Source of the DNA: Candidatus Poseidoniaceae archaeon
Lineage (GTDB): Archaea; Thermoplasmatota; Poseidoniia; Poseidoniales; Poseidoniaceae
Length of the DNA: 32,000 nucleotides
Assembly: GCA_943789275.1 (NCBI GenBank)
Contig: CALSTM010000002.1
Location: 720,001-752,000, forward strand
Reading direction: 5' to 3'
The notes below the pieces were generated by a model. That model was not told the DNA's origin, searched no databases, and saw only the letters and a program-made list of their open reading frames with translations. Positions 4,647 through 26,732 of the stretch are shown here, in pieces. Position numbers and translations under genes: made by a program. Within the stretch, counting starts at the first letter, position 1, and each line of letters starts with the position of its first letter.

Positions 4647-4670
4647 AGTGATTCCGCCTTAGGGAGGTGA

Positions 4671-6638: not shown

Positions 6639-6650
6639 ACATCACACCTC

Positions 6651-6923
6651 CTAATCGACAATGACCTCGCTAAGGAGCGAAGCGACAATTGCGCCCACGC
6701 CGATGAGAATACCAATCAAGTAGTACCAAATTCCACTGCCGCCAAGGTTTCCGATAAGCGGTACCAGTTCACCGAGAAGCGGGATGTTATCCCAACCAAA
6801 CACGTTGGAGAATAAAGCAAGTAGTCCGAGGAGAGCAACGCTGAATAGTGTCAAAAAGACACGACTGCTCGATGGTTCTCCGGTTCCAACGGTAACATCT
6901 GGTAGAGTTGTAGCGTTTGACAT
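6651..6923 (-). CDS. Small (90 aa) membrane protein, first gene of a two-gene unit with the EF-hand membrane protein.
   Basis: GGGTGA lies 7 nt upstream of the ATG. There are two or three hydrophobic helices, including a Gly-rich stretch. Its stop lies 12 nt before the next ATG, whose SD overlaps that stop. Confidence 0.55.
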   Translation of the reverse strand: MSNATTLPDVTVGTGEPSSSRVFLTLFSVALLGLLALFSNVFGWDNIPLLGELVPLIGNLGGSGIWYYLIGILIGVGAIVASLLSEVIVD

Positions 6924-6940
6924 TTTTCTTCACCCTTACA

Positions 6941-6957
6941 TGACCCCGTAGGGGTCA
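6941..6957 (-). other. Perfect 7-bp stem, 3-nt loop hairpin (TGACCCC GTA GGGGTCA) between the radical SAM gene and the small membrane gene.
   Basis: Read directly. It lies 18 nt upstream of the 6923 start and immediately 5' of its SD. On the minus strand a CCCCTTTTTC run follows the radical SAM stop at about 7020-7029. Confidence 0.35.
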
Positions 6958-7029
6958 ATCCGTCCACTCGCATTGCGGTGATAAACATTCACTCCTTGCG
7001 AAGAGGTTTTTCCCGATTGAAAAAGGGGC

Positions 7030-8196
7030 CTAAGGTGAACGAAGACGGTCCAACACATTGCCACGACGATGCTTCGAAATCCCGAGGGGGACGGGTAGAG
7101 CTTGTTCTAGCAGAACTTCTTCCTTCCATGCCTTTTCACATTCACAGGACAGCCCTTCGAATTCTTCCAACTCACCGGAAACTGCGTAGCGCTCAATAGC
7201 AGCAACGACCACGGAATCGCATGAGCCACAATTGTGAGCGCCGCGAATTTTTCCCCCAGCAGTAGGATGGATAATGAGGCGACAAACTTGGTCGTCGTCG
7301 CCGTTTTTTCCGCCTTTAGGATGGATGGTTGGGTGAGCTCTACGTATCATTTCAACCAAAGACCAGAGCCATGGTGGGCGGTATTCATTGTTGCGATGGA
7401 GGCGATCAATGATGGTCCCGCGCTGGATATTCATCGGATTTACTGAGATTTCATCGCTGCGTTCCGCCACTTGCTCAATCCACTTCACACCGTGATTCAA
7501 TGCATCAGCTTCACTCATAAACGGTGGTTTGAACATCAAATAGGTCTTGACTCGAATGTTAAATTTTTTCAAGTTTTCAACTGCTCTGTCCCATGATTTG
7601 GTCGTGAAGCCTTTGTTTACATGGAAGCGAAGAACTTCGTCATCATACGCCTCAAGCCCGACAGCCACAGCAAAACTCTGGTTCAATTGAGATGCCCAGG
7701 CGAGTTTTTCTTCGGTGAGTTGTTCGCATCGGCTTTCCACAATCAGTTCTTTGCCGAGTTCTTGGCAATCTCTCAGCACCGTTTCTTGGAATTCCACAGG
7801 GATTTCCCTGTCCTCAAGCAAAGAGCCACTGGTGTAGACTTTAACCATGGCGTGGTCTTTGAAATCCTCGAATTTTCGTTTGGCATAAGCCCATTGGGAG
7901 TGGAGATCTTCGTTGGTCACATCATCCCTGGTATCGTTGAAATATCCGCAGAAAGTACAACCACTGGACCACCACCAATGGCATCCCTTCGTTCGTAGAA
8001 TCACGGTTACTGCACTGCAAGGCGTTCCATCAGCCAGTGTTTCAGGCGTGTAGTAGACGGTTGCAGGTTCACCCGCATCCCATGATTGTTGACGAGCGAC
8101 AGCCCAAGGCGTATTTGCTGGAGCTTTGACAAGGTCATGGATTCGTGAACCCTTTGCGCCATCTCCGACAAGTGTCAATGACTTCGGCCCGACCAT
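7030..8196 (-). CDS. Radical SAM enzyme of the TIGR01210/Elp3-related type, possibly the archaeosine-synthesis protein RaSEA.
   Basis: Cys triad ILRTKGCHWWWSSGCTFCGY (7948..7983), followed by a TIM-barrel-like pattern (VYTSGSLLED, ESRCE, VAVGLEAYDD). The C-terminal region contains AHNCGSCD. I prefer ATG 8196 (GAGGGA 4 nt upstream) to the TTG at 8214 used by the ORF track. Confidence 0.7.
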   Translation of the reverse strand: MVGPKSLTLVGDGAKGSRIHDLVKAPANTPWAVARQQSWDAGEPATVYYTPETLADGTPCSAVTVILRTKGCHWWWSSGCTFCGYFNDTRDDVTNEDLHSQWAYAKRKFEDFKDHAMVKVYTSGSLLEDREIPVEFQETVLRDCQELGKELIVESRCEQLTEEKLAWASQLNQSFAVAVGLEAYDDEVLRFHVNKGFTTKSWDRAVENLKKFNIRVKTYLMFKPPFMSEADALNHGVKWIEQVAERSDEISVNPMNIQRGTIIDRLHRNNEYRPPWLWSLVEMIRRAHPTIHPKGGKNGDDDQVCRLIIHPTAGGKIRGAHNCGSCDSVVVAAIERYAVSGELEEFEGLSCECEKAWKEEVLLEQALPVPLGISKHRRGNVLDRLRSP

Positions 8197-8256
8197 GGTA
8201 TCCCTCAATGACAAGTCGCATGGCTTTGCCGTTTCAATGCACCGCTTAGAATTCGG

Positions 8257-9108
8257 CTAGGAATCGGATGGAATGAAGAGAATGGTCGAGCCGGCACGCA
8301 CAAATTCCCCCTTCGGATGAGAAGAGTTTTGTTCCTCGGCAGAGACAACATTTGGAGTGAATAAGCGTGCAGGTGCCCGAATGTCTACACGTGAGCCGAG
8401 ACGTATCATGCCGTAACGTTGTCCGCGACGAACTTCAGAATCGACACCCAGCCACGGAACGATGGTCCGAGCGAAAGCCCCTGAGATTTGTGTGACTTCA
8501 ATCATGAGTTCCTCCTCTCCTTTGAACACGCTGCGAACCCTTTCATTGTACTGACTTTCCTTTTTGTAGGCTGCCAGAAAAGGACCGCGTCGAAGACCTT
8601 TGCCAGCCCTGTGCTCCATTCTGTGAAGTGTTCCCGCAAGCGGAGCTCGATTGACATGGACATCAAGTGGAGACATGAAAATCGCGATTCGGAACACATC
8701 GTCGTTGGATTCCTCGCCCTCCTTCACTGGTTCAAAACGTTGTTCGGTTTCAAACTGCAGGGGATGTTCCAATGGTTCAGGATACCAATCTCCGGTGAGT
8801 GTATCGGACTCACACTCACCAGACGCCAACTGTTCTTTGTTGGGGCGTCGGCCCGTTGCTCGTTCGCGGCGAACAAACATGACGTGACCGTCTGCTGGGC
8901 TTACCAATACATTCTCATCGCGTGGGATAGGACGGTCTGGGTCTCGCCAAAAATTAGCGCAAAAAGCTGAGAGCATCAAGCAAAAGATACCGAACAATGG
9001 AATGAATCCATACAACGAATCAATGGTTGCACCGATGATGAGAGCACTGCCTCCCATCATCAAAGGGATGAGAACTGGAGCGTGGCCACCATGGGCCAGT
9101 CCACCCAT
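8257..9108 (-). CDS. psd: Phosphatidylserine / archaetidylserine decarboxylase proenzyme (small membrane-anchored type).
   Basis: Two N-terminal TM helices. Psd motifs are SPADGHV, MSPLDVHVNRAPLAGT and the self-cleavage-type G-S site (IRLGSRVDI). GAGG lies 7 nt upstream of the ATG and overlaps the upstream gene's stop. Confidence 0.8.
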   Translation of the reverse strand: MGGLAHGGHAPVLIPLMMGGSALIIGATIDSLYGFIPLFGIFCLMLSAFCANFWRDPDRPIPRDENVLVSPADGHVMFVRRERATGRRPNKEQLASGECESDTLTGDWYPEPLEHPLQFETEQRFEPVKEGEESNDDVFRIAIFMSPLDVHVNRAPLAGTLHRMEHRAGKGLRRGPFLAAYKKESQYNERVRSVFKGEEELMIEVTQISGAFARTIVPWLGVDSEVRRGQRYGMIRLGSRVDIRAPARLFTPNVVSAEEQNSSHPKGEFVRAGSTILFIPSDS

Positions 9109-9117
9109 AGAATCGCC

Positions 9118-9894
9118 TCACTCAGCCCAAGGGTCGTCGCCATCAGCCCAAGTGGCTGCAGCGGTGGTTTCAGGAGCTGCCGGTTCTGCAACTTCTTCGG
9201 TTGCTTCCTCAGTTGCTGCTTCTTCGACTTCTTCGACTTCTTCAGAAGCAGCATCAACGACTTCGACGGATGCTGTCGAATCCTCAGCAGCTTTGCCCTC
9301 TGCTTCAGCATCAGCCAAATCCGAAGCGCGTGCCTCAACCATGTCTTCCATCCGTTCGGTGAACGCACGAGCCATATGCTGTGATTTTCGCTCTGCTTCG
9401 ATAGCACGCTCGATCATTTCGTAGCGTACCTTGATTGCCTTGTTGAGGTCTTCGAAAATTTGCATGTGATCGACGTACCAGTCGTCCCGAGCTTTCATCT
9501 CAACGACAGCGTGCTTCAAATCGTTGTCCAGTTCTTCAGCGATGCTGAAAACGGTGCTAACACGGTTCTTTTCCCGGGTATACTTTTCTTCCATCTTCTC
9601 CAATTCAGGTTCAAGATGTTCGACTTTCTTTGAGGCTTTGACAGCACGGAGTTCAAGTTCACGGACTCGAACTTCTTTTTCCGACAGGAGTGCTTCTTGT
9701 GTTTCCTTTTCGATTTCACGTTCAATGATTTCTTTTTCCAAAACTTCGATGGTTGCTACTGCATCCTCAAGGTCGGATTGTGCGGAGGTAAATGCTTCGT
9801 ACAGGACCTTGATTTGGTCTTCGTATTCTTCAGCAGTCAATTTCTTTACAGCCGGTTCAAAGTCCGCTGGGATAATGGTTCCGTCTTCGGTCAT
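9118..9894 (-). CDS. Hypothetical coiled-coil protein with a strongly acidic Glu/Ala/Thr-rich tail ending in WADGDDPWAE.
   Basis: Heptad-like charged sequence throughout. I prefer ATG 9894 (GGGTGA 4 nt upstream) to the TTG at 9948. The gene ends 10 nt before the psd start. Confidence 0.6.
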   Translation of the reverse strand: MTEDGTIIPADFEPAVKKLTAEEYEDQIKVLYEAFTSAQSDLEDAVATIEVLEKEIIEREIEKETQEALLSEKEVRVRELELRAVKASKKVEHLEPELEKMEEKYTREKNRVSTVFSIAEELDNDLKHAVVEMKARDDWYVDHMQIFEDLNKAIKVRYEMIERAIEAERKSQHMARAFTERMEDMVEARASDLADAEAEGKAAEDSTASVEVVDAASEEVEEVEEAATEEATEEVAEPAAPETTAAATWADGDDPWAE

Positions 9895-9940
9895 TGCTTC
9901 ACCCGGAGGCAAGCCTCCGTGAACACCCACACACCTCCAC

Positions 9941-9964
9941 CCTATCAAGCCGACGCTTGATAGG
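9941..9964 (-). other. Perfect 10-bp stem, 4-nt loop hairpin or palindrome (CCTATCAAGC CGAC GCTTGATAGG) between pip and the coiled-coil gene.
   Basis: Read directly. It lies 30 nt downstream of the pip stop and 47 nt upstream of the 9894 ATG. No T-run follows it. Confidence 0.5.
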
Positions 9965-9993
9965 ACTGATTCTAACCAGCAAACGGACCAAGA

Positions 9994-10956
9994 TTAACGG
10001 TAAGAGTCCGTTACAGAAACAAGTTCTCTAGCGATGCTTACTTCCCCCATCGAATGGCCCGCATCCGGAACCAATACCAGATGGCTTGAAGGTACGGCTT
10101 TGTGCAATTCCCACGCACTGCGGGCTGGGCAAACTACATCGTATCGTCCTTGGATAATGTGCATTGGGATGTGTTGAATGGAATCCACATGATTGAGGAT
10201 ATGTGCTTCTTCAAGGAAAATAGCGTTGATGAAGTAATGGCATTCAATTCGAGCGAACGCAACTGCGAAATCTAAATCTTCAGCCTTTTCGAGGTATGAG
10301 TCGTCTGGGAAAAGACGGCTTGTGGCCATCTCCCAGCGCGTCCATTCCTTGGCGGCTGCACGCCGAACGGAGACATCTTCGCTGGTAAGGCGGGAATAGT
10401 ATGCTGTGATGAGGTCGTTCTGCTCATTCAAGGGGATATGTTCGCGGTATGCCTCAAATGCATCGGGGAAAATATGACTGGCTCCGTCTTGGTAAAACCA
10501 CCGAAGTTCGCTCTTTCGGCACATAAATATGCCACGCAACATCAAGCTAATTGCACGATTGGGATGCTGTTGAGCGTAAACCAGAGAGAGGGTTGAGCCC
10601 CACGAACCACCAAAGACATGCCACTCCTCGATACCGAAGGTCTCTCGAAGTAATTCAATATCATGAACGGATGCTTGGGTCGTGTTGTCTTCGAGTTCAG
10701 CGTATGGTGTTGATTTCCCGCATCCGCGCTGATCAAACTGGATAATGTTGTACGCAGTTGGGTCGAAGTACCGGCGGTATGCTGGCTGTCCACCACCGCC
10801 TGGTCCCCCGTGAATCACAATCACTGGCATGCCGTCAGGATTTCCACTCTTTTCCCAAGCAATTGTGTGCAAATCCGATACGCGTAACATGCCCGTTTCA
10901 TAGGGCTCTATCAGCGGATACAATACATCGTCAATCGTGGTCGTAACATCGAGCAT
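9994..10956 (-). CDS. pip: Proline iminopeptidase (alpha/beta hydrolase, S33 family).
   Basis: LYPLIEPYETGML, HGGPGGGG, nucleophile elbow GGSWGSTL and a C-terminal DAGHS. Confidence 0.9.
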   Translation of the reverse strand: MLDVTTTIDDVLYPLIEPYETGMLRVSDLHTIAWEKSGNPDGMPVIVIHGGPGGGGQPAYRRYFDPTAYNIIQFDQRGCGKSTPYAELEDNTTQASVHDIELLRETFGIEEWHVFGGSWGSTLSLVYAQQHPNRAISLMLRGIFMCRKSELRWFYQDGASHIFPDAFEAYREHIPLNEQNDLITAYYSRLTSEDVSVRRAAAKEWTRWEMATSRLFPDDSYLEKAEDLDFAVAFARIECHYFINAIFLEEAHILNHVDSIQHIPMHIIQGRYDVVCPARSAWELHKAVPSSHLVLVPDAGHSMGEVSIARELVSVTDSYR

Positions 10957-10994
10957 GAACCTTCGTAAGGCCGGCGAATATTGTTCTTATCGGA

Positions 10995-11651
10995 ATGGAC
11001 ATCTTCTTGGAATGGGTCGGTTCGACCGTTTTTATGAGCCGGAGAGAAGCGACCGAAGTTTTTAGCGAATGGGCCGAGAAAGGCAAAGACAAGGGTATGG
11101 AAAATGGCCATGCTGCATCGGTTCATGCCATGCTAAAGCTCGCCGGCATCCCTCGTTCAGAAACCTATTCTGCCGTTGACGTAGGATGCGGAAACGGTTG
11201 GGTATGCAGACTTTTAGCACAAGATGAAACTTCCACTCGTGTTGTAGGCGTTGACGGTTCTGAGGCCATGATTGCTAAAGCAAAAACGATTGATTCAGAA
11301 GGTGATTACCGCGTCACTGTGTTACCAGATTGGGAACCTTCAGAGAAATTTGATTTTGTCCACAGTATGGAATTCCTGTATTACCTTCACGACCCTCAAT
11401 CCATGCTCAAACAACTTCACGACAACTGGATGAACAGCGGTGGAATGCTGGTTGCAGGTGTTGACCATTACCTCGAAAATGAAGACAGCCTAAGTTGGCC
11501 TGAAGCATTGAACGTCCACATGACAACACTCAGCATGGACGATTGGAAAACAGCTATGATTGAAGCAGGTTTTAGGGACGTGGAACTTCACCAAGTTGCC
11601 GCAAAAGACTCGTTCATTGGGACACTGGTCATGTGCGGTAAAAAGGCCTAA
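10995..11651 (+). CDS. Class I SAM-dependent methyltransferase.
   Basis: Motif I VDVGCGNGW, then an acidic VGVDGSEAM, then FDFVHSMEFLYYL. Confidence 0.75.
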   Translation: MDIFLEWVGSTVFMSRREATEVFSEWAEKGKDKGMENGHAASVHAMLKLAGIPRSETYSAVDVGCGNGWVCRLLAQDETSTRVVGVDGSEAMIAKAKTIDSEGDYRVTVLPDWEPSEKFDFVHSMEFLYYLHDPQSMLKQLHDNWMNSGGMLVAGVDHYLENEDSLSWPEALNVHMTTLSMDDWKTAMIEAGFRDVELHQVAAKDSFIGTLVMCGKKA

Positions 11652-14600
11652 TCGTCGTCATCCCCAACAGGGCCGAGAACTGAGCCTTCAGGCCCGCATA
11701 GCCGGATTTGTCCGCGCCCAAATGGGCATTGAGAACAGATGTGCGATGAATCTTCAGGCAAGCGTGGAGGTTCACTCACCGCTTCGGGCGTAGCGGAGAG
11801 TTGCGCCATCCATTCAAGGTGTTGTGCAAGTGTTTGGGACGCAGATTCATATTCGTTTTGAGTCAACTGGACCATACGGCCCGATGCTCCGATGAGCAAG
11901 GCTGGAGGAAGGACTCTGCGGCGCTCACTCGCTGGCTTCTGTTGCTCAAGCACCTCGAGAGCCATCGAATACAGGGTTAACTGAAGTCGGTGTTCGTCGA
12001 GTATCGAACGCTCTTCCAAAGTTGATGGGTAAGGAACCAACACATCGCCCTTGTATCTTTGAAGACGGCTTCCAGACTCTGGGTTTTCTGAGTTGAACTC
12101 GTCACGGCACCCCTTGGTCTTCAAGTCGACCACTTGGAGACAGCCGTTGCCTTGCTCGTCGCGCATGGCGAGAACTAAATCCGCTCGTCCATCAAAAAGA
12201 ACATCAACGTGGTCAATTTGTGCAAGATTCTGGGTCCCTTCGACCGAAAAGCCGGTTCTAAGCAGGCCGTCAAATCCGACTTTATGCCGGAAAAAAAACG
12301 GAAGTTCGGTGCGTAATCCTTCGACTTTAAACCCGAAATGTTGCTCACCGGCAGCATACCGTCCAAGCAGTCCATTCCGGACCAGTGAACCGAGTTCAAC
12401 TAACCGATCGAAGGTTGGCTTGAAGGCTTCTGAATCTGTGGCAGTAATGCCTTCTTCTGTCAAAACGCGTACAATGGTTTCTTCATCGTCAAGTAAGTCC
12501 TTCCCGTCAAAAGTCCATGCAGCCATAAGTGGAGTAGAAGGCGGTGCATTCTTGATGAAAGGGTTTTCCAAACCAAGTTCCACCAACCGATGCATGAGTG
12601 TTCCAAAAACAGTCGCTGGCGGGTATATCGATACTGAGGACTCTGGCAAAGGCCGATTCAAAAAGAAATTCAGTGGTTCTGGGTTCCAGCCTTTCACTTC
12701 CGAGAGCCAGTGACGGCGAGGACAGGCAAAACTGGTATCCAGTCCATGGGCCGTCATTCGCATCATTTCACTGACAAGAGGAAGGGCGGTTTGAGGTGCT
12801 GGAACTGGACTCATCTGAGTCAGTTGAGTCTCAAGGTTCATCCATCGTTGAAGCGGAGTTGCTGTACTCAAGCCAGGGAAACAATCTGGAGAATGGTACA
12901 CATACAGGGATTTGACTGATTGAGGACCCAAGCATGCATCTTCAATCAGCGAACGGGGGTTGAAAGAAAGGGTCGTTTCCTTGTATTGCGAAAGCGAGGT
13001 TGCAAAGGAGTCATTTGGCTGAAGCCATGGCGAATCTTGAACACTGTTTTGATGAGACAAACTTCGTAATCCATCAAGCCACATGGCGCCCATCGTCTTC
13101 ATCGAAGGCTTACTCTTGAGTTCCAAAAAGCGAGTTTCTTCATGGATTGTTGCTGTGTCGCTAGGGGAGCCTACAACAATCAATCGGTCCTTCACACGGG
13201 TTAAAGCAACGTAGAACTCACGCCTGCGTTCAGCCTGTCGCTGCGCGTGGTCCATTCGTTTAGCAAATTCCCAAAGACCGTCATCTGGGCGGTCGCGTGA
13301 AGACCACGGATTGATTCGACCAGCAACCACTTGCGGAGTAACCAGGACATTGTTGCGTACTGCTAACGAAGCATCGGACTTACCCGCATGGAACATTCCT
13401 GCCACAACAACAACCGGAGCTTGGAGACCTTTTGCTCCGTGGATTGTCATCACTTGCACTGCCCCTCCAGAAGGCGTGATAATAGCAGAGGGACCCTTGC
13501 CACCGAGCGACTGAAGTGATTTCATGCGGTTGAATATTGCCGAGGCTTCATGACCCAATTCCTTACCAATTGAAGCTGAAAGTGCACACCAAGCCTCAGC
13601 GTTCTGCCGAGAAGTATCATCCGAGTATGCGAAGAGCAAGTCCGAATGGTCAAGAACGGCATCAAAGACATCGTGTACTGCACCTTGTTGCACCATCGAC
13701 TCCATGTGCTCCACCAGTCTTTTGACCGAATCACTGGGTGCAAATTTGTGCATTTTCTGCCACCAGGTTAACTCGTCGGTTGACGACATCAGAGCATGGG
13801 ATTGTGCGTCGTTAAATCCGAACACCGGAGAGCGAGCAAGAGCCAATGCAGCATGACGAGAATGAGGGAAAGCGATCAATTCAAGGCAAGCGAGCAGAGG
13901 AGCAACGACTGGCCGCTCCAAAAGCGCACCTTGCCGGTCAGCCATAACCGGTATGCCGCGAGATTGAAGGCGCTGAATCAAGTCGGGAATGTATTTTCTC
14001 GAATGAACCAAAATGAGTACGTCCTCAGGCCGAACGGCTGTGGAATTCGACGCCACTTTGTGGTACCCGTTTACCGATGCATCCCACACTTGTGTTGGGC
14101 TTTGAGTGACAAGAGCTTGCAATCGGGCAGCAATCAATTCGTTTTCGAGATGAGCACGTTTGGCATCAGGGTCTGCAAATGTATCAATTTGTTTTTCGAG
14201 GTCAAGGCTTGGGGGCTCAACTCCAATTTGCAACGGTAAAAGCCACTCAAGTACACCTTCGACTTCTTCTTTGACCTCTGCAGGTTCTTCAAGGTCCCTG
14301 GCGGGACGGAGTGATTGTGATTCAGCATGCCAATCTCCAGGTAGAACGTAATGCCGTTCATCGAATACATCGTCAAATAAACCGTTCATCGTCCGCATTA
14401 AGTTGTGGAGAGTTCGGTGGTTAGAGGTCAAGTCGATATGACCCAAAAGTCGCCGAGCTCGGCGCTCGTCAGAAACCAATTCTACGTAACCACTTCCGTC
14501 CTCAAATCCAACTTCGACGTGTTGCCACAACTGGGATTCCACTGCCTTACCTTCGATTTGAGAGCTTTGGATAAACGACTTTCCAGCACCAACTGGGCGC

Positions 14601-16624
14601 GGGTCTCTCCCACACCCCTCCACGCGTAAATGTTGCAGCCTTGGTTCTGATTCTTCAATCGAATTCGCCGATTGGATGGCTGCCACCGTACGGCGCATGA
14701 CCGTAACTTCTGCTTGTCGGAACCGGTAGATACTTTGTTTCATATCACCGACGATGCAAACGGTTGGGTCCCAGGGCCCTAAAGGTCGAAGCGGTTCATC
14801 TGCTTCGAGCCTACGATGGCCCCAGAGACGCGCAAGGAGACGGAAGTGTGCTGGGTTGGTGTCTTGGTATTCATCAATGATGAAGGCACGATATTGACGG
14901 CGAATCGTTTGCAAGGTGTAGAAACGGCGCTGAAGGTCTTCGTAGCATGACTGGTCTTCGCCAGCCAAGCGCATGGCACGAGAAATATGTTGGTCGGACC
15001 AAGGTTCGTCCCCCAACCGGTCAAGTGCTTGAACAACGACTGGAGGGTAGACATGGCGAACCATGTCCGGGCATCGTGCGAGCAAAAGATCCGCAACAAG
15101 GCGTTGTATGTCATCATAGTCGTGAACGCCTTCGTGGGCTTTACGTAGCGACAAAATATCCTGACAACCTCTGTGTACGACAAGCAAATCATTGAGTACA
15201 TTGGTTTGGAGTTCATCCGAAATTCGAAGGCGTCCTTCGGGTGCAAGGTCACTGAACGACAAGGTGACTTCCTGACAACGTATCTTCGAATCTTCAGGCA
15301 AAAACGGTAATTCCGAGGTGGGGTGGAGCAAGAAGGCACTGCGGCCGAGAAGGCAAACAAGCTTGCCGAGTCGGCCTGTCAAGAGGTCTTTCAGTTCATC
15401 TCCGGCATTCATCGCATCCACTACAACGGCTTCTTTTTCTGCCTTTGAAACGCCTTTGGCGGCGGATTTCGATAACAGTCCAGGGTGCCATCCTTCGGAA
15501 TGGTTGGCTTGCGGCAGACCTCCTTTCGGGAAGAAATTCGGTACTTCGTCCGCCAATTGGTTGGTTGTTGCCGCAGCAATCGCCACCTGCCAAACCCATT
15601 GCAGGCATTCGCCGGGGTCATCGGAAACTGTTTGACGAGCCAATTCAGTGAGATGGTTGAATCGGGTGAGAGTGGTTCCAATTTTCGCCTCACATGCGTG
15701 GACGTAACTTGCAGCGTGGTTCATGTAAACGTTAACCCATTCCGAAAGGGAATGTTGTAAGGATTGAGCAAAACCAACAACGGTATGCCGAACGGGTTCA
15801 AGGAACATATCCATGAGTATCTCGTAAGGCATTGGCCCATCACCGCTCCAATTATGCCCAAGTGTTTGCGCCCGAGCAAGCATGGCTTGATACGCCTCTT
15901 CAACGAACAGTGACTTGCCGAGCATTCCACTCAGTACGACGGCTGAACGTTCTTGACCGCCAAGCAGGACTGCGAGGCGGTTTCTTGATGCTAAGAACGC
16001 CCCGATGTGACCTCGAACTCCGGCTTCATGCGCATCATCGATGGTTCGAATCCGCCATGCTGAATGCAGTGCTTCCCTGATAAGGAGCGGCGCTCTTTCT
16101 TCAGAAATCTGCTCCCGGCTTGGATGAACTGCAACCAAGTCGAGATGCGGTGAGACAAGTTGAGAAAGAAAAGCATCGATGGTTGAAATCGGTGCTTCAT
16201 CGAGAGCAGACATCAAGGTCTCGATGTCTCCCTCGCGAATTCGAGGGTCGAAAATACCCTCGTCATCCGCTTTTTCCGTGGAGGTAGCACGGCTTTGGCC
16301 GACCCGGTGTCGGATTCTTGCTTTCAATTCTGCAGCGGCTTTCTTGGTGAATGTAATGGCTACAACTTCACTTGGCAGTAACCCCTTCCATTCCTTAGGA
16401 GGCGTTCGTTGACGAGGGGGTGCTCGCAAGAATCCGCTCGCTTGAATGGATTCTCGAGGGCCGGGCGGAAGTAAATGCGTAGCACGCTGCTCTGATGAGA
16501 GAAGGTGTTGCACATAGCGTTCAGCCATCACCGTCGTTTTCCCAGTGCCTGCGCCCGCATCCAACGCAATGTGTTTATCGAGGTCAAGGCCAAGTTGTTG
16601 GCTTCGATTAAATTCAATAATCAA
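11648..16624 (-). CDS. addA: AddA/RecB-like SF1 (UvrD-type) helicase fused to a C-terminal RecB-family PD-(D/E)XK nuclease with a Cys cluster (1658 aa).
   Basis: Walker A DAGAGTGKTT (16535..16555). Helicase motifs IIDEYQDTNP, GDMKQSIYRFR, TIHGAKGLQAP and FYVALTRVKDRLIV. Nuclease signature GRADLVL...VVDLKTKG (12110..12184) plus QLTLY. Cysteines are FACPRRHW and CSQCPFGRGQIRLC (11696..11737). The TTG start overlaps the upstream stop (TTGA). Confidence 0.85.
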   Translation of the reverse strand: MIIEFNRSQQLGLDLDKHIALDAGAGTGKTTVMAERYVQHLLSSEQRATHLLPPGPRESIQASGFLRAPPRQRTPPKEWKGLLPSEVVAITFTKKAAAELKARIRHRVGQSRATSTEKADDEGIFDPRIREGDIETLMSALDEAPISTIDAFLSQLVSPHLDLVAVHPSREQISEERAPLLIREALHSAWRIRTIDDAHEAGVRGHIGAFLASRNRLAVLLGGQERSAVVLSGMLGKSLFVEEAYQAMLARAQTLGHNWSGDGPMPYEILMDMFLEPVRHTVVGFAQSLQHSLSEWVNVYMNHAASYVHACEAKIGTTLTRFNHLTELARQTVSDDPGECLQWVWQVAIAAATTNQLADEVPNFFPKGGLPQANHSEGWHPGLLSKSAAKGVSKAEKEAVVVDAMNAGDELKDLLTGRLGKLVCLLGRSAFLLHPTSELPFLPEDSKIRCQEVTLSFSDLAPEGRLRISDELQTNVLNDLLVVHRGCQDILSLRKAHEGVHDYDDIQRLVADLLLARCPDMVRHVYPPVVVQALDRLGDEPWSDQHISRAMRLAGEDQSCYEDLQRRFYTLQTIRRQYRAFIIDEYQDTNPAHFRLLARLWGHRRLEADEPLRPLGPWDPTVCIVGDMKQSIYRFRQAEVTVMRRTVAAIQSANSIEESEPRLQHLRVEGCGRDPRPVGAGKSFIQSSQIEGKAVESQLWQHVEVGFEDGSGYVELVSDERRARRLLGHIDLTSNHRTLHNLMRTMNGLFDDVFDERHYVLPGDWHAESQSLRPARDLEEPAEVKEEVEGVLEWLLPLQIGVEPPSLDLEKQIDTFADPDAKRAHLENELIAARLQALVTQSPTQVWDASVNGYHKVASNSTAVRPEDVLILVHSRKYIPDLIQRLQSRGIPVMADRQGALLERPVVAPLLACLELIAFPHSRHAALALARSPVFGFNDAQSHALMSSTDELTWWQKMHKFAPSDSVKRLVEHMESMVQQGAVHDVFDAVLDHSDLLFAYSDDTSRQNAEAWCALSASIGKELGHEASAIFNRMKSLQSLGGKGPSAIITPSGGAVQVMTIHGAKGLQAPVVVVAGMFHAGKSDASLAVRNNVLVTPQVVAGRINPWSSRDRPDDGLWEFAKRMDHAQRQAERRREFYVALTRVKDRLIVVGSPSDTATIHEETRFLELKSKPSMKTMGAMWLDGLRSLSHQNSVQDSPWLQPNDSFATSLSQYKETTLSFNPRSLIEDACLGPQSVKSLYVYHSPDCFPGLSTATPLQRWMNLETQLTQMSPVPAPQTALPLVSEMMRMTAHGLDTSFACPRRHWLSEVKGWNPEPLNFFLNRPLPESSVSIYPPATVFGTLMHRLVELGLENPFIKNAPPSTPLMAAWTFDGKDLLDDEETIVRVLTEEGITATDSEAFKPTFDRLVELGSLVRNGLLGRYAAGEQHFGFKVEGLRTELPFFFRHKVGFDGLLRTGFSVEGTQNLAQIDHVDVLFDGRADLVLAMRDEQGNGCLQVVDLKTKGCRDEFNSENPESGSRLQRYKGDVLVPYPSTLEERSILDEHRLQLTLYSMALEVLEQQKPASERRRVLPPALLIGASGRMVQLTQNEYESASQTLAQHLEWMAQLSATPEAVSEPPRLPEDSSHICSQCPFGRGQIRLCGPEGSVLGPVGDDDD

Positions 16625-19600
16625 TTGACTTCACCTCCAAGGGTTGCTGAAGGACAAATTTGGCGAACTGAACAATACGAGCAATGCTTTCCAGGCGTTG
16701 GATTCACTGAGCCATTCGCTGCTGTTTCTATGGCTCTGTTCGCTGTGCGTATTCGTTCCTGAATCCATGCACGGAATCCATTGGATTCCGTGAAATCCGT
16801 ACCCAGCATTCGATGGTGGTTTTGAGTGTACATTGTGCGTTCGCCAATCTCACCGGTGCCAATGTATTTCAAAATCGACGAGTCGATTTCCACGTAATGG
16901 GTCGTCGACTCACCAATCTCAGAGACACCCACGCCGACTACTCGGTCCCCTGGATGACTCTGCTCCCATGCTCGAGCATACAATCCAAGCTGAACTTCGT
17001 CAAACAAAGCTTTGCGATGTCGGTCCCCCTTATCGCCAAACTTTGGGCCATTCACCGTCTTCAAATCACGAATGATGACAAAACGGCTTGCAGCGGATGG
17101 ATGCTCTAAGGAAAGGGGTTCATCCGGCGGAGATGCGGAAAGTACGCCGTCTTTGATGGCTTGAGTTCTCATTTCAGGGTCCAATACAATCGCGTCGACG
17201 CGATCGACTCTTCCTGACAAGTTGAACGTGACCGGTTGAGATAAGTCATCCACTCCATCGACGTTCACATAATTGCCCTTCTTTGAAGAGAACGCCCATT
17301 CACAGGCAAGTGGGCCAACTCCGGTAAGTGCGAAATCCGATTCAATCATACGTCCAATACGTCCGCTGGGTTCGAGTTCATGCTCCCCCTCAAGGTACAG
17401 CCTCCATTCAGCGGGTGTCACGCCAATCATCTCTCGACAACGGTGAACTGCTACAGCGTCATATCGAGTCAACCATGGGACTTCATCGGAGAGGTATGTC
17501 AAGACAGCGCCCCACAATGCATCAACGGAGTTGTTTGGACCAAGGTGAAGTGGTAAAGGGGAAGAGACTGCATCTTCAGCTGTCGGGATTCCATGACTTC
17601 GTAACAAAGCCGCTTCAGTGTCGTGTATGAGCGTCCCGCGAGTACGCGATTCAAGATCCTCGCTCAAGGTTTCCTCGGCTCTGGCTTTGAGTTGCGTATC
17701 CATCCACGCTTTCCGAGGACATTGCAGCCATGACTGCAAGCGGCTTTGAGACCACTTTTCTCGCTTGATGGAAGATGACTTTAGCCCCAATGTCGAGTTG
17801 AGAACTTCGCTTGGGAATGTGTATCCTGGTAACGGCCTCGGGTCAATTGCGGGACCCCTTGACCTGCTGTTGACCTTCAAACCAAGATGCGGCCAATGTT
17901 TCTGCTGGCTTGAGCCAACCCCTACTTGAGACTTCGTTGGTTGGAGAATTATCCCGTCGACGCTCAAGAGATGATGTCGATTCTCCCATGTAAAGTAATC
18001 ACCATTATCGAGGTTTTTCATGACCGGTTGACGAAGATGTCGGTCGTTTTGAAGTTCCAACTCATGGGCCAGGGCAAGGCTGGTGTTCGAAAGAACTGCT
18101 GCCTCGGGCGTCCCACCGTCTCCAAGTTCAAGACCTGAACGTTGACGAACATCGCGTCCGCGGCGCCCACCTCGCTCACCAACTGCTCTACCGTCGCGCA
18201 TCGACATGGTGAACGGTCTTGGAGTAAGCCAAACGTTCCCTCCACCGTGTTCATCATTCGTCCAATGCCAACTTCGGTGGGGATTTCCTTCCTGATGCGA
18301 TTGCTCGTCTAGGAACGAAGGGGCTTGGTTGAACGATGAAAGCGTTCCATCGGCACGAGTTTCTGCCAACCATTCTGCTAATGGAGCACTGGGGCCACCG
18401 CCTTCTTCTGCACTTGTATCAAACACAACAACCTCAGAACCTGCATTGAGCAGATGGCGAAGATGATGCCTTCCTTGACGGATGGTTAAATCCGATGAAA
18501 AGAGTCCCAGTCGTAATTGGGCTGGCGCATCGAGCCACGGAACCTTTGACGCCTTCATTGTCCATGAGTTCACATCCAGCCCTACCAAGAGAATGAGGTC
18601 TGCTTCAACCCCAAGAGCCTTCTCGGGGGTAAGAACAAGAACATTTTTTCCTCGAGAGCGAGAGCGAGGGAGAGACGTTCTCGACAAGGTTTGTTCAAAA
18701 TGTTGAATGAATTGTTCTCCGTTCTTCGGCGAATGCAAATTCGCTTTTTCTAACAATCCTTGAGTGGTTTGATACGCTTCTTTGACCATTTGAAGGCCCG
18801 CAAGGGAACGATCAAAAAGAGCGGTCCTCTTGGTTAAATCTCCCCAATTTAGCCGTTGATAGACCGCATCCAACCATTCGGCACCGGTCTTCAATCGAGG
18901 AGGGAGCGGGAGTCTTTGCCCAGAAGAGCATCCAATCGCTTCGCCTTCGAGGGAGCGGCGCGATTCATCATCAATCAGTGGTGCCCAAATACGGGCCACA
19001 CAATGCATCCACCATTGCGTCTCCTCAAGGGCTTGGCGTTGCCGCTCAGGGTTTTCTCCAAGCTGTGGTGTGGCCTGCGCCAATATTGCCAACCAGCGTG
19101 ACAGACTTCCAAGGCCGCCACGGACATGGAATGAACGCGCGATGTTCTCTAAGATTTCTGGATGAGGACGAGGCGCCCAAGTCCGCTCACTTGGATGGTT
19201 TAGAGATTCAACCGCTCCGTTGATTAACGGCAGGCTGTTGTGTTCATACAAAACTCGGAGGTGCTGCAAAGACCATGCTTCCATTCCAATTCCAAGTTTC
19301 ATTGCTCGTAAAAGACCTGAGACGGCCGGTACGTGTTCCAAGTCCACCTTCTCAGCACCGCAAGTAAAACCCAACGGTTTGATACGCGAATGCCACTGAG
19401 GTAGATTTGACTCCGCAGCACCATCAATTATCAGCACCGTTCCCGAGGAACGGAGTGAGAAAGAGCGTAATAACTCAATGGCCGCATCCATGCTGTGTTT
19501 GCAACGTTCAAGTGTCACGCGATGCAGGCTTGTTTGGCGTTCAATTCCACGTCGAGAGCACCATGGCACGTTTGCCGTGGGTTTCCAAACTTCGTGTTTT

Positions 19601-20451
19601 GGAAGCCATTCTGGAAGGTTTTTTTGAGTCACATACTCCCATTCTGCTTCAAAGAGATATGCTCCGTGATGGCCTAAACGGAATGAACCTGCACAACACA
19701 ATTGATGAATCGGACGATGTCTCGACAACTGTTGATAGAAGGAGCGTTCTATTTCGGTGAAATCAGGTGCAGTGTTGAGCAAGACAATTCCATCCACATC
19801 GTTCAGAGTGAACGGGGAATATTCCGATTGAAGGAGAGCTTGAGTCAGTACATGGAGTGCATGATGAGGATGAGTCCCCGATAGAGTCAACTCAACACGG
19901 TTGAGTATTTTGTCGAAATCACGAGCCCCTGGGTCCTCCTCCCATGCCCAGGGCTGGTTGAGTTGGGTGAGGGTTCGGTGCAACATAAGCACACGTTCAG
20001 TTTGAAATGGAGACCACTTTCTGCCTTCGATGGCGGAAAATAGTAAGGGTAAATCGCCGTTTTCAGCGGCAAGTTTGGTGTGCGCATGCACAACTGCGAA
20101 TGTACCTGCTTCATCGTCGAGCAACGGTGGGAGGCCTAAATCCAAAATGAGCAACTGTGCAAGCCGTTGAAGCGTGAGGTGGTGAGTTGTATCAACGGGC
20201 GCATCGATCTGTGATAATCGAATTAACGTCTGGTTGCGGCTGGCCTCATTCGGGTGGACGACAAGGAGATTCGCCGCATCACCACTGCACAACGCCTCAA
20301 TCAGCCAAGGAGGCAAGTTATCTCCCGAATCAATTGCCTCGAGAGTGATTGATACAGTCGAATCGTGTTTCATCTCGGCCGCCCCATCACCATTACAGAC
20401 GCCGACTGTTCTTGAAGGCTCGTTGCCAAAACGAAGTGGTGTGTATATCAT
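16621..20451 (-). CDS. addB: AddB-like subunit (1276 aa). The N-terminal helicase-like region has no recognisable Walker A. The C-terminus is a RecB-family nuclease with a Cys cluster.
   Basis: C-terminal motifs: LQCPRKAW, GRVDRVDAIVL, FVIIRDLKTVNG, EVQLGLYARAW and HCSYCSVRQICP (16654..16683). Gene order (B then A) and coupling match bacterial addBA operons. No GxGKT is visible in the N-terminal 100 aa. Confidence 0.7.
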   Translation of the reverse strand: MIYTPLRFGNEPSRTVGVCNGDGAAEMKHDSTVSITLEAIDSGDNLPPWLIEALCSGDAANLLVVHPNEASRNQTLIRLSQIDAPVDTTHHLTLQRLAQLLILDLGLPPLLDDEAGTFAVVHAHTKLAAENGDLPLLFSAIEGRKWSPFQTERVLMLHRTLTQLNQPWAWEEDPGARDFDKILNRVELTLSGTHPHHALHVLTQALLQSEYSPFTLNDVDGIVLLNTAPDFTEIERSFYQQLSRHRPIHQLCCAGSFRLGHHGAYLFEAEWEYVTQKNLPEWLPKHEVWKPTANVPWCSRRGIERQTSLHRVTLERCKHSMDAAIELLRSFSLRSSGTVLIIDGAAESNLPQWHSRIKPLGFTCGAEKVDLEHVPAVSGLLRAMKLGIGMEAWSLQHLRVLYEHNSLPLINGAVESLNHPSERTWAPRPHPEILENIARSFHVRGGLGSLSRWLAILAQATPQLGENPERQRQALEETQWWMHCVARIWAPLIDDESRRSLEGEAIGCSSGQRLPLPPRLKTGAEWLDAVYQRLNWGDLTKRTALFDRSLAGLQMVKEAYQTTQGLLEKANLHSPKNGEQFIQHFEQTLSRTSLPRSRSRGKNVLVLTPEKALGVEADLILLVGLDVNSWTMKASKVPWLDAPAQLRLGLFSSDLTIRQGRHHLRHLLNAGSEVVVFDTSAEEGGGPSAPLAEWLAETRADGTLSSFNQAPSFLDEQSHQEGNPHRSWHWTNDEHGGGNVWLTPRPFTMSMRDGRAVGERGGRRGRDVRQRSGLELGDGGTPEAAVLSNTSLALAHELELQNDRHLRQPVMKNLDNGDYFTWENRHHLLSVDGIILQPTKSQVGVGSSQQKHWPHLGLKVNSRSRGPAIDPRPLPGYTFPSEVLNSTLGLKSSSIKREKWSQSRLQSWLQCPRKAWMDTQLKARAEETLSEDLESRTRGTLIHDTEAALLRSHGIPTAEDAVSSPLPLHLGPNNSVDALWGAVLTYLSDEVPWLTRYDAVAVHRCREMIGVTPAEWRLYLEGEHELEPSGRIGRMIESDFALTGVGPLACEWAFSSKKGNYVNVDGVDDLSQPVTFNLSGRVDRVDAIVLDPEMRTQAIKDGVLSASPPDEPLSLEHPSAASRFVIIRDLKTVNGPKFGDKGDRHRKALFDEVQLGLYARAWEQSHPGDRVVGVGVSEIGESTTHYVEIDSSILKYIGTGEIGERTMYTQNHHRMLGTDFTESNGFRAWIQERIRTANRAIETAANGSVNPTPGKHCSYCSVRQICPSATLGGEVN
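16631..16638 (-). promoter_or_regulatory. Shine-Dalgarno GGAGGTGA for the AddA-like gene, embedded in the 3' end of the AddB-like gene.
   Basis: The minus strand reads GGAGGTGA AGTCAA TTG A, with the TTG start and TGA stop overlapping at 16621..16624. Confidence 0.6.
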
Positions 20452-20729: not shown

Positions 20730-21929
20730 ATGACTGAAGACATGAACCAAAAGAAGATTGAATTGACAAACTGCGATGAGTGCGCAAGCAAAAACCTCAC
20801 CGCTATGCCCGAAAAGGGAGAAACATGGTGCGACGACTGTGGCCTTGTCCACAAAGACCAGAAGATTCTGGCGAACGACAACGGAAACGCACTGTTCGGC
20901 GAAGGGGCTCACTACCACTCCGTTCGGCAAGATGCTGACCAAAACCGAAACATGGGTGGGACCGGTCCAAAAATGCGGTACGGTTCCAAGGGCGTAATTA
21001 ACCCAGGCAAATACCGATTGCTCGAGAAAATCGACCGAAGCACCGTTCGCAACCCACACCCATTTGCCAACCGTGTCAAACGTAACATCGAACAGTTGTA
21101 CGGCCGTCACGCTCTCCACATCCTCGAATACATCGTTGAGATGTCATGCAAGCCACTTACCGGTCAACAAGAGCTGATTCGAAAGAAGCAAAGCAAGTCA
21201 CTCGCTAAGCGATTGGGCATGCCAAAACAATCCATTTGCCGCAAGGACAAGGGTATCAAGGGTTCTTCAGAGGAACAAAACGCCGTAATCATTGCTGCAG
21301 CAATCGTTGAACTGGCAGGAGATTTGGGCATCATGCCAAAGTTCGACCGACGTTCCACCATGGACAAGGCCGATATCACTCCAAAACAAATCAGCAGCGC
21401 TCGTATTCGTATTTTGCAACACTGGAAGGCCCGCCTTACCATGAAATGGGCAGCCATGCCTCCACGAAAGAACGCAAACGACCGCCGAGAGGATTCAATC
21501 ACTCAGGCCATGGAACACGTGTTCGAAATGCTCGGAGAACACCTCAGTACTGAGGACTACGAGAAGGTGTTGTATGAAACAGAAACTCGCTTGGCTCTGC
21601 TCAAAGAAGGGACTGGTGGAGCACTGACCATCAATATTGAAGCACGAATGGTCGTTTGCGTTACCGCCTACGCCAGTTTGAACTTCTTCGGATTGCAATC
21701 CGGAGCTGCTGATTTACTTGCTGCCGTTTTTGGCCTCACAAGCAGTGGGATTCGTTCCCGCTACGATGCACTGGTGAAGAAATCCGAAGCCGGGACATTT
21801 CATGATGCTGGCGCTTTTGACGTATCGATAGCATGCTACGACCCTGAATCCGACAAACACGCACAGAATGCATTGATAGCCAAAGTTCGCTTGGGCAAAG
21901 TATGCGGAAAGCGTACCTCCTCGTCTTAA
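20730..21929 (+). CDS. tfb: Divergent transcription factor B (TFIIB-family) paralogue, 399 aa.
   Basis: N-terminal TFIIB-type zinc ribbon CDEC-x15-CDDCGLV (20772..20840). Helical, cyclin-like segments follow (GSSEEQNAVIIAAAIVELAGDLGI...ITPKQISSARIRIL). The B-reader/linker region is poorly conserved and the protein is about 100 aa longer than a typical TFB. AAAGGAG lies 9-10 nt upstream. Confidence 0.65.
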   Translation: MTEDMNQKKIELTNCDECASKNLTAMPEKGETWCDDCGLVHKDQKILANDNGNALFGEGAHYHSVRQDADQNRNMGGTGPKMRYGSKGVINPGKYRLLEKIDRSTVRNPHPFANRVKRNIEQLYGRHALHILEYIVEMSCKPLTGQQELIRKKQSKSLAKRLGMPKQSICRKDKGIKGSSEEQNAVIIAAAIVELAGDLGIMPKFDRRSTMDKADITPKQISSARIRILQHWKARLTMKWAAMPPRKNANDRREDSITQAMEHVFEMLGEHLSTEDYEKVLYETETRLALLKEGTGGALTINIEARMVVCVTAYASLNFFGLQSGAADLLAAVFGLTSSGIRSRYDALVKKSEAGTFHDAGAFDVSIACYDPESDKHAQNALIAKVRLGKVCGKRTSSS

Positions 21930-26724: not shown

Positions 26725-26732
26725 CACATCAC

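Follow-up and report, generated by a model that had tools for sequence, protein, structure and literature searches.

A coupled gene pair in a Marine Group II genome

We examined a 32,000-nucleotide (nt) stretch of DNA from Candidatus Poseidoniaceae archaeon (GenBank assembly GCA_943789275.1, contig CALSTM010000002.1, positions 720,001 to 752,000), referred to here as the window, in which two adjacent genes are predicted to encode the subunits of an AddAB-type helicase-nuclease. AddAB, RecBCD, and AdnAB are bacterial machines for the resection of DNA double-strand breaks; archaea normally use Mre11-Rad50-HerA-NurA. We call the two genes and their products B and A. Their positions are as follows.

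16621..20451, minus strand: B subunit gene, ATG start, 1276 amino acids (aa) long (open reading frame list, translation, PDDEXK_1 match, AlphaFold2 model, Foldseek)
11648..16624, minus strand: A subunit gene, TTG start, 1658 aa long (open reading frame, translation, Pfam, NCBIfam, PDB sequence match)
16621..16624, minus strand: TTGA overlap of the B stop and the A start, presumed to couple their translation, with GGAGGTGA at 16631-16638, 6 nt upstream (sequence)

The genes are adjacent and co-oriented with B preceding A, an order also found in the haloarchaeal and Thermus pairs described below. At the junction, which reads ...GGAGGTGAAGTCAATTGATT..., the TGA stop codon of B occupies 16621-16623 and the TTG start codon of A occupies 16622-16624. 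A first-pass annotation of this DNA had called both reading frames, with these lengths and coordinates, and their coupling through a TTG/TGA overlap preceded by GGAGGTGA; the open reading frame list and translations confirmed these calls. The overlap is also a feature of the family, being kept in 57 of 59 related loci as either a 4-nt NTGA (45 loci) or a 1-nt overlap (12 loci). Residues 1 to ~35 of B are unconserved and most orthologues are 20-30 aa shorter, so the true start of B may be the internal M27, with the annotated first codons falling within window 20373-20451 on the minus strand. TATA-like runs (TATATAAAG) lie ~55 nt upstream of the annotated ATG inside a 278-nt divergent intergenic region. 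Scans of the window for tRNAs, Rfam families, promoters, and terminators returned nothing specific.

Subunit A carries a UvrD-like motor and a RecB-family nuclease

The translation of A falls into two regions.

13175..16624, minus strand: helicase region of A, residues 1 to ~1150, with motif I at 16535-16555, motif II (DEYQDTNP) at 14852-14875, and motif VI at 13181-13213 (motif positions, conservation)
11651..12772, minus strand: nuclease domain of A, residues ~1285-1658, with C1301 at 12722-12724, GRADLVL...VVDLKTKG at 12110-12190, and QLTLY at 11969-11983 (PDDEXK_1, AlphaFold2 model, Foldseek)

Pfam searches matched A to UvrD-helicase (PF00580, 3.6e-32), UvrD_C (PF13361, 1.7e-15), and PDDEXK_1 (PF12705, 4.5e-9, residues 1292-1635). 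Motifs I-VI of a superfamily 1A (SF1A) helicase are present at residues 24, 91, 148, 584, 626, 732, 1060, and 1138, among them GAGTGKT at residues 24-30 (nt 16535-16555), DEYQDTNP at 584, TIHGAKG at 1060, and YVALTRVKDRL at 1138. The nuclease pattern GxxD, DxK, QxxxY is complete, with GRADLVL at residue 1479, VVDLKT at 1498, and QLTLY at 1548. Every motif of both proteins, the SF1A motifs included, is conserved among 72 orthologues of A and 65 of B. The motif positions and Pfam matches thus uphold the full SF1A/UvrD motif set and the RecB-family nuclease that the first-pass annotation had seen in A. The GRADLVL...VVDLKTKG motif is also where it had been placed, except that the upper coordinate of 12184 was two codons short, the G being at 12190.

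In sequence comparisons A was closest to AddA. Its best NCBIfam matches were addA_Gpos (2.5e-49, 168 bits), recB (131 bits), and addA_alphas (131 bits), and its best sequence matches in the PDB were AddA from B. subtilis (3u44_A, 3.8e-18), then AdnB (1.8e-10) and RecB (3.7e-7). A profile of the nuclease domain of A had no match in the PDB. When an AlphaFold2 model of this domain (predicted local distance difference test, pLDDT, 87.4) was compared with known structures using Foldseek, the best match was the nuclease of AddA (4cej_A, 2.7e-6), closely followed by Dna2 (3.1e-6) and AdnA (3.7e-6), with further matches to the Cas4-family protein ACE1 (3e-4) and to Cas4 (3e-3).

Subunit A exceeds the 1232-aa AddA chain of B. 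subtilis by 426 aa, in keeping with an earlier estimate that it is about 400 aa longer than classical AddA. We located the extra length from the spacing of motifs relative to a 1275-aa haloarchaeal AddA.

Motif I to Ia: 23 additional residues
1B region (Ic to II, 436 versus 300 aa): 136 additional residues
After motif III: 52 additional residues
Motif VI to nuclease motif II, the interval that holds C1301: 102 additional residues
Nuclease motif III to the C-terminus, the interval that holds the cysteine triad: 73 additional residues

Outside the cysteine set described below, C518 (LLLARCPD), C623 (just before motif III), and C1248 (YHSPDCF) of A are invariant from Marine Group IIa to Marine Group IIb, and C487 is conserved at 94%.

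Subunit B carries a second nuclease and a predicted inactive helicase fold

Subunit B can be divided in the same manner.

17782..20451, minus strand: helicase-like region of B, residues ~1-890, lacking Walker A and other ATPase motifs (P-loop scan, structural alignment, addB_alphas)
16624..17769, minus strand: nuclease domain of B, residues ~895-1276, with C911 at 17719-17721, GRVDRVD at 17194-17214, the IRDLKT core of IIRDLKT at 17056-17073, and QLGLY at 16978-16992 (translation, Pfam, motif scan)

Pfam identified a C-terminal PDDEXK_1 domain (PF12705, 1.3e-18) and no helicase family in B. The nuclease motifs are GRVDRVD at residue 1080, IIRDLKT at 1126-1132, and QLGLY at 1154, and the complete set (H..E, GxxDRVD, RDLKT, QLxLY) is intact and invariant across the family. 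A pattern scan of the full protein for the P-loop [AG]x4GK[ST] found it nowhere in B. Both results agree with the first-pass annotation, in which this protein had a nuclease signature of its own and no visible Walker A.

The sequence of B contains a weak link to AddB, a match to addB_alphas (1.3e-5) over residues 561-695 in the helicase-like part. Cas4 profiles matched the C-terminus of B. Searches of the PDB with B, whether as a single sequence or as a profile, gave no match apart from a marginal one to Cas4 over the CPR...H motif. We obtained an AlphaFold2 model of residues 77-1276 from 41 family sequences (mean pLDDT 84.3). The best Foldseek match of this model was AddB from B. subtilis (4cei_B), which aligned over its full length with an E value of 1.1e-18 and template modelling scores of 0.51/0.52, followed by full-length matches to AdnA (4.5e-14) and then RecC (4.5e-10). 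Judged from this model, the N-terminal part of B is predicted to be an inactivated UvrD-like helicase fold. The PDDEXK_1 domain, the weak addB_alphas match, and AddB as the top structural match all place B inside the AddB/RecB-nuclease family. A comparison of the full-length A and B profiles with each other was uninformative, and the cropped nuclease domains aligned over CPRxxW...H..E only (E 0.0014).

Both nucleases are bracketed by conserved cysteines

Each nuclease domain is flanked by one distal cysteine and a C-terminal cysteine triad.

11696..11737, minus strand: triad of A, C1630-x2-C1633-x9-C1643, which with C1301 forms a predicted second set of iron-staple ligands (conservation 0.94-0.99, kept in Marine Group IIb, C1301 in a helix-turn-helix of the model)
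16654..16683, minus strand: triad of B, C1257-x2-C1260-x5-C1266, which with C911 forms a predicted set of iron-staple ligands (conservation 0.89-0.98, C911 in a helix-turn-helix)

In A, the first cysteine, C1301, is within FACPRRHW and the triad is CSQC-x9-C at residues 1630-1643; in B, C911 is within LQCPRKAW and the triad is CSYC-x5-C at residues 1257-1266. The conserved fractions among the A orthologues are 0.97 for C1301, 0.99 for C1630, 0.99 for C1633, and 0.94 for C1643, and among the B orthologues 0.98 for C911, 0.91 for C1257, 0.91 for C1260, and 0.89 for C1266. All eight cysteines are kept in a Marine Group IIb pair that is only 35% (A) and 33% (B) identical to the pair studied here. 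The clusters that had been reported to bracket both nucleases are therefore real features of the family at 89-99% conservation, including the four cysteines of A (94-99%).

An arrangement of one distal and three C-terminal cysteines around a RecB-family nuclease is the pattern known from AddB and Dna2 (PMC3378879), and the first cluster ligand of AddB is in a helix-turn-helix (PMC3321194). The same is seen in our models. The first cysteine of A (model residue 143) is in the turn between helices 134-142 and 144-153, and that of B (model residue 835) is in the turn between helices 826-834 and 836-845. The fold neighbours of the A nuclease include AdnA, Dna2, and Cas4, all nucleases described as bearing iron-sulfur (Fe-S) clusters. 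Based on sequence and models, we regard Fe-S staples on both subunits as a well-supported prediction, with the identity of the metal presumed. This would set the pair apart, as the cluster of AddAB has been placed in AddB only (PMC3378879) and that of AdnAB has been described only in AdnA, the AddB-equivalent subunit (PMC13000450).

We also considered whether the cysteines bind zinc or are structural, which would make this an ordinary AddAB variant without a second metallocluster. Sequence cannot tell the identity of a metal, the C-x2-C-x9-C spacing in A departs from the C-x2-C-x5-C of B, and several lineages retain the genes although one or both subunits have lost their cysteines. We nonetheless consider this rather unlikely given that the 1+3 arrangement matches AddB and Dna2, that PF12705 spans the whole bracket in A (residues 1292-1635), that the first cysteine is positioned as in AddB, and that the fold matches of the A nuclease include Fe-S nucleases.

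The losses were surveyed in clusters of related proteins and in individual loci. Of 119 full-length A clusters, 97 have the C-x2-C-x9-C triad (in 6 of these the search pattern for the first cysteine was unmatched) and ~8 have an alternative tail, C-x7-C-x2-C. The triad has been lost in 14 clusters. Among these, P0144, P0188, and a subclade of ~1610-aa proteins (P0191-P0203, as in locus L044) all end in ...MSCWN..., and in P0101, P0103, and P0104 the loss has arisen by point substitution of cysteines. Among the B clusters, 70 keep C-x2-C-x5-C, P0030-P0033 have C-x2-C-x2-C, and in the subclade P0009-P0015 the triad is replaced by Y-S-Y (GRHYSYSSIRHVYP). When A and B were scored together, the loci were distributed as follows.

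Both cysteine sets intact: 52 loci
A triad intact, B lost: 3 loci, including L014, L064, and L074, with A of L074 having Ser at the column of the first cysteine
A lost, B intact: 1 locus (L044)
Both lost: 1 locus (L023)
Variant pattern in both: 1 locus (L076, with C-x7-C-x2-C in A and C-x2-C-x2-C in B)

Lost or rearranged sets are found at L014, L023, L044, L064, L074, and L076 and in clusters P0009-P0015, P0030-P0033, P0101-P0104, P0113-P0128, and P0191-P0203. Because some lineages have replaced the cysteines yet kept the genes, the predicted cluster is not indispensable. The distribution is most simply explained if both sets were ancestral and have been lost repeatedly, since they are widespread in Marine Group IIa and present in the one Marine Group IIb pair examined.

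The pair resembles AddAB more than other helicase-nucleases

We consider it likely that B and A form a heterodimeric AddAB-type helicase-nuclease, part of the chromosomal core of Poseidoniales (Marine Group II), with predicted Fe-S cysteines on both nucleases. By sequence and models, the predicted architecture is AddAB-like, with a working motor in A, a nuclease in each subunit, and an inactive helicase fold in B. As in AddAB from B. subtilis (PDB 3U44/4CEI), there is a two-gene pair with B followed by A, in which A combines an SF1A UvrD-like motor with a RecB-family nuclease and has AddA as its best sequence match, and B combines a helicase-like fold with a RecB-family nuclease set within 1+3 cysteines and has AddB as its best structural match. 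The Poseidoniales proteins differ from AddAB in the 426 additional residues of A, which fall in the 1B region, the stretch following motif III, and the nuclease domain; in the conserved 1+3 cysteines on the nuclease of A, the published cluster being in AddB only (PMC3378879); in the lack of Walker A in B, a motif that B. subtilis AddB retains (PMC3321194); and in having an archaeal host and a sequence similarity far below family cut-offs.

Several observations weigh against this assignment. A scored below the NCBIfam equivalog cut-offs (168 bits versus 707.65 for TIGR02785 and 131 versus 860.75 for TIGR02784), and, for the AddB families (TIGR02773/TIGR02786), B reached 23.5 bits versus 486.5 for addB_alphas and did not match addB_Gpos. 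Given scores this far below curated cut-offs, the pair is a distant relative of AddAB and not an equivalog member. B and the nuclease domain of A have no sequence-level matches in the PDB or among plasmids. With sequence matches missing, the homology of the N-terminal ~890 aa of B to AddB rests mainly on predicted fold. The spacing of the A triad (x2/x9) is not the x2/x5 of B and of both comparison B-like proteins, and some lineages have replaced the cysteines of B (with Y-S-Y), of A, or of both subunits (L023).

The structural matches of B and the sequence matches of A also bring other heterodimers into consideration. Behind AddB, the model of B matches AdnA and then RecC, and behind AddA, the PDB sequence matches of A are AdnB and then RecB, as might be expected of an AdnAB-like dual-motor machine or of a RecBC(D)-like one with B as the RecC equivalent. 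AddB, however, scores best against the model of B. The nuclease catalytic motifs and cysteines of B are intact, and neither the window nor the conserved neighbourhood contains a RecD-like gene. To our knowledge, RecC has neither intact nuclease motifs nor the cysteines. B also lacks Walker A and any other ATPase motif, which excludes a nucleotide-binding subunit like AdnA (PMC3321194). We therefore rejected both readings, the AdnAB-like one on the missing ATPase motifs of B and the RecBCD-like one on its intact nuclease and the lack of RecD nearby, and consider either of them very unlikely.

Mycobacterial AdnAB (PDB 6PPR/9NP6) is likewise a heterodimer of two subunits that each have a helicase fold and a nuclease, and AdnA, the second-best fold match of B, also matches the model of the A nuclease. 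It differs in that AdnA keeps Walker A and B motifs (PMC3321194), of which Poseidoniales B has none, and in that the Fe-S cluster is described only in AdnA (PMC13000450), unlike the cysteine sets on both Poseidoniales proteins. Hudaiberdiev et al. (2017, PMC5704561) reported UvrD-Cas4-like fusions of the pfam12705 branch from bacteria and mesophilic archaea; these have the domain architecture of A, joining an SF1 UvrD-like helicase to a Cas4-like nuclease. These fusions stand alone or beside type III restriction-modification or Dcm-Vsr genes (PMC5704561), and no coupled AddB-like partner is described for them, unlike Poseidoniales A, which has such a partner and housekeeping neighbours. Dna2 and Cas4 share the RecB-family nuclease core bracketed by four cysteines, and both match the model of the A nuclease structurally. 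The helicase of Dna2 is of the SF1B class, Cas4 is a small nuclease that is stand-alone or CRISPR-linked, and we know of neither as part of a two-subunit end-resection complex. Dna2 is also different in having its SF1 helicase and Fe-S nuclease on one polypeptide (PMC3378879).

The pair is conserved across Poseidoniales

We searched for relatives of A in a scan of one genome per species, which returned 209 stretches, and examined the best 79 loci. Essentially all of the 79 are from Poseidoniales metagenome-assembled genomes (MAGs), including a 2.06-Mb MG-II chromosome (CM001443.1), and nearly all of the contigs are labelled as archaeal (Poseidoniales or broader). Where contigs are long enough, B and A occur together in essentially every related locus. 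In ~47 fully flanked loci the pair is embedded in the same order of 11 genes: lyase, hypothetical proteins hyp783 and hyp309, a TFB-like protein, B, A, methyltransferase, alpha/beta-hydrolase, hypothetical protein hyp276, phosphatidylserine (PS) decarboxylase, and radical SAM protein. The flanks of the window contain GatE-type genes (GatB_N/GatB_Yqey), two tandem Pth2 genes, a YGR210-type Obg-like GTPase, and ordinary metabolic enzymes. GC content is flat across the window at 0.48-0.52.

The most divergent B clusters are 30-32% identical, and one of these has a member named Candidatus Thalassarchaeaceae, that is, Marine Group IIb. At the Marine Group IIb locus L082, B is 1190 aa long, A is 1643 aa long, and the two genes share an ATGA overlap. 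A profile of B searched against 1.84 billion representative proteins gave 474 matches at E<=1e-3. The 150 matches listed were full-length relatives or short fragments; all of those with a checked source name were from Poseidoniales, and a bacterial source was demonstrable for none of the 150. The most divergent full-length relative among them, P0242, is in a cluster with members named Poseidoniales. We found no relatives of B in IMG/VR and rejected a viral origin of the pair on this ground. A tblastn search with B and with the nuclease domain of A against 72,556 plasmids gave no match.

Two of the related contigs, L058 (CALDQY010000213.1) and L065 (CAXQWT010000040.1), bear the labels of bacterial MAGs, Rhodobiaceae and Salipiger bermudensis, respectively, and both carry a Poseidoniales A gene. 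Such labels are what would be expected if the contig were bacterial and mis-assigned to an archaeon, or if the pair were on a recently transferred mobile island. Against this, L065 itself has the complete Poseidoniales gene order, and for this reason we think that the bacterial labels of L058 and L065 are likely binning contamination of public bacterial MAGs. The archaeal-type flanks (GatE, two Pth2, YGR210 GTPase), the nearly uniform archaeal labelling of the 79 related contigs, CM001443.1 among them, the shared gene order, the even GC content of the region, and the lack of plasmid or virus relatives of B refute a contaminant or mobile island, and we give this possibility almost no weight.

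The neighbours, and the same gene order on Poseidoniales-type contigs of the best 79 relatives, confirm the archaeal origin that the first-pass annotation had argued for. Of the neighbours it had named, GatE and Pth2 stood; the TFB-like assignment rests on a sub-threshold zinc ribbon (22.2 bits versus a cut-off of 29), and the RaSEA-like protein could be verified only as a radical SAM protein. It had also offered a choice between a horizontally acquired machine and a distinct lineage. Our results point to a divergent Poseidoniales lineage and do not support recent transfer because the pair is order-wide. One conserved neighbourhood across Marine Group IIa and the presence of the pair in Marine Group IIb indicate that this is an old, vertically inherited core gene pair of the order. 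Any bacterial origin would then predate the split between Marine Groups IIa and IIb.

We made several observations on other genes of the window. The gene divergent from B (20730-21929, plus strand) encodes the 399-aa protein with the sub-threshold TFIIB zinc ribbon; this TFB-like protein evolves very fast (23-89% identity) and has its gene beside B in most of the Marine Group IIa loci examined, and L082 has no gene of its size at that place. The Pth2 paralogues (26308-27107, minus strand) are 139 and 124 aa long and are separated by 5 nt. At 4671-6638 on the minus strand is a gene for a 655-aa protein in which the one feature we could recognise was a pair of EF-hands at the C-terminus (residues 579-638), which is unusual for an archaeon.

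Other AddAB-like pairs in archaea and on plasmids

The matches of A among plasmids in tblastn searches were mostly to haloarchaeal megaplasmids, at ~25% identity. On a plasmid of Haladaptatus sp. QDMS2 (NZ_CP119793.1, positions 4594-11774; L080), a gene for a 1116-aa PD-(D/E)XK protein is directly upstream of a gene for a 1275-aa UvrD helicase. This pair is nearer to bacterial AddAB than the Poseidoniales pair is, with 331 bits to addA_Gpos, a full-length alignment to addA_alphas, and 79 bits to addB_Gpos, and its layout is canonical: B has C747...C1066-x2-C1069-x5-C1075, and A has a nuclease and no cysteine cluster. It shares with the Poseidoniales pair an archaeal host, the order of the genes, the C...C-x2-C-x5-C pattern, and the lack of a P-loop in B. 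It differs in being plasmid-borne, in lacking the cysteine cluster in A, in the ~25% identity of its A protein, and in having a B protein with no BLAST match to Poseidoniales B. The Haladaptatus pair is directly downstream of genes for a BREX-5 PglZ and a MutH/Sau3AI-family endonuclease, a context that resembles a defence island. On plasmid pTHEOS01 of Thermus oshimai (3764-8496; L081), the gene for a 746-aa AddB-like protein (C553 and C725-x2-C728-x5-C734) overlaps that for an 831-aa UvrD/AddA-like helicase without a nuclease domain and adjoins MoxR and VWA genes. It represents a smaller version of the two-gene arrangement described above.

The Haladaptatus pair shows that Poseidoniales are not the sole archaea with an AddAB-like machine. 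An earlier suggestion (Cromie 2009, in a statement cited in PMC2887965) was that addAB had been transferred "even into the archaea", and the architecture described here varies known parts; both points limit its novelty. To the first-pass annotation our analysis adds the ancient vertical inheritance in Poseidoniales, the extreme divergence from curated AddA and AddB, the existence of another archaeal AddAB, and the loss in several lineages of the dual cysteine sets that most lineages keep. Our literature searches found no description of an AddB-like partner coupled to a cysteine-bearing helicase-nuclease and nothing relevant on Poseidoniales or Marine Group II with AddAB, RecB, Mre11, or Rad50. 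A review of archaeal double-strand-break repair does not mention AddAB or RecBCD (PMC8708640).

Proposed mechanism and cellular role

We infer heterodimer formation, strand polarity, metal binding, and a role in break repair by analogy with known systems. As with AddAB from B. subtilis, the heterodimer would bind a double-stranded DNA end. The single active SF1A motor in A would translocate 3'->5' on one strand and unwind the duplex, the RecB-type nuclease of A would cut the 3' strand, and the displaced 5' strand would pass through the nuclease of B. The ATPase-dead helicase fold of B may serve as a scaffold and, possibly, in sequence scanning. The clusters would staple each nuclease domain, and the one in B probably sits at the fork, its position in both AddB and AdnA. 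Resection would leave a 3' single-stranded tail for use by the archaeal recombinase. Unprotected linear foreign DNA may also be destroyed, as occurs with RecBCD and AddAB.

This last activity raises the question of whether the pair is chiefly a nuclease directed against viruses or plasmids, akin to defence-linked UvrD-Cas4-like fusions or to helicase-nuclease pairs of defence islands. Those fusions have been linked to type III restriction-modification and to Dcm-Vsr genes (PMC5704561), and the haloarchaeal AddAB-like pair is next to BREX-5 PglZ and a MutH/Sau3AI nuclease on a plasmid. PADLOC gave generic GajB matches to A. The pair also evolves faster than its surroundings, with 37-81% identity for B and 45-85% for A versus 73-96% for the radical SAM neighbour. 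By contrast, every Poseidoniales locus examined has the fixed housekeeping neighbourhood, the window contains no restriction-modification, BREX, or cas genes, and the PADLOC matches are limited to generic UvrD/GajB and Cas4 segments. The pair is present in both families of the order, unlike the patchy spread typical of defence islands. We thus favour a role in genome maintenance, given the fixed neighbourhood and order-wide retention, and consider a mainly defensive role improbable. RecBCD and AddAB serve both in repair and in the destruction of foreign DNA, making this a matter of emphasis and not of a different mechanism.

A more far-reaching proposal, which we put forward tentatively and think less likely than not to hold in full, is that the pair represents an ancient, distinct AddAB lineage with Fe-S staples on both nucleases that would be the main long-range resection engine feeding RadA and would supplement or replace HerA-NurA. 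The series of losses would then record the staple becoming dispensable, possibly under the iron scarcity of the surface ocean, although linking cysteine loss to iron scarcity is only a guess.

Marine Group II are among the most abundant planktonic archaea and are still uncultured, which means that genomes are the only source of knowledge on their DNA repair. An order-wide AddAB-type machine would mean that textbook repair by Mre11-Rad50-HerA-NurA does not cover all archaea, and it poses the question of how a resection machine of bacterial style passes its product to RadA. The role of the iron staple in helicase-nucleases was left open by work on AddAB and Dna2 (PMC3378879). The second cysteine set on A, together with natural variants that lack one or both sets, may provide a comparative system in which to study the function of the staple.

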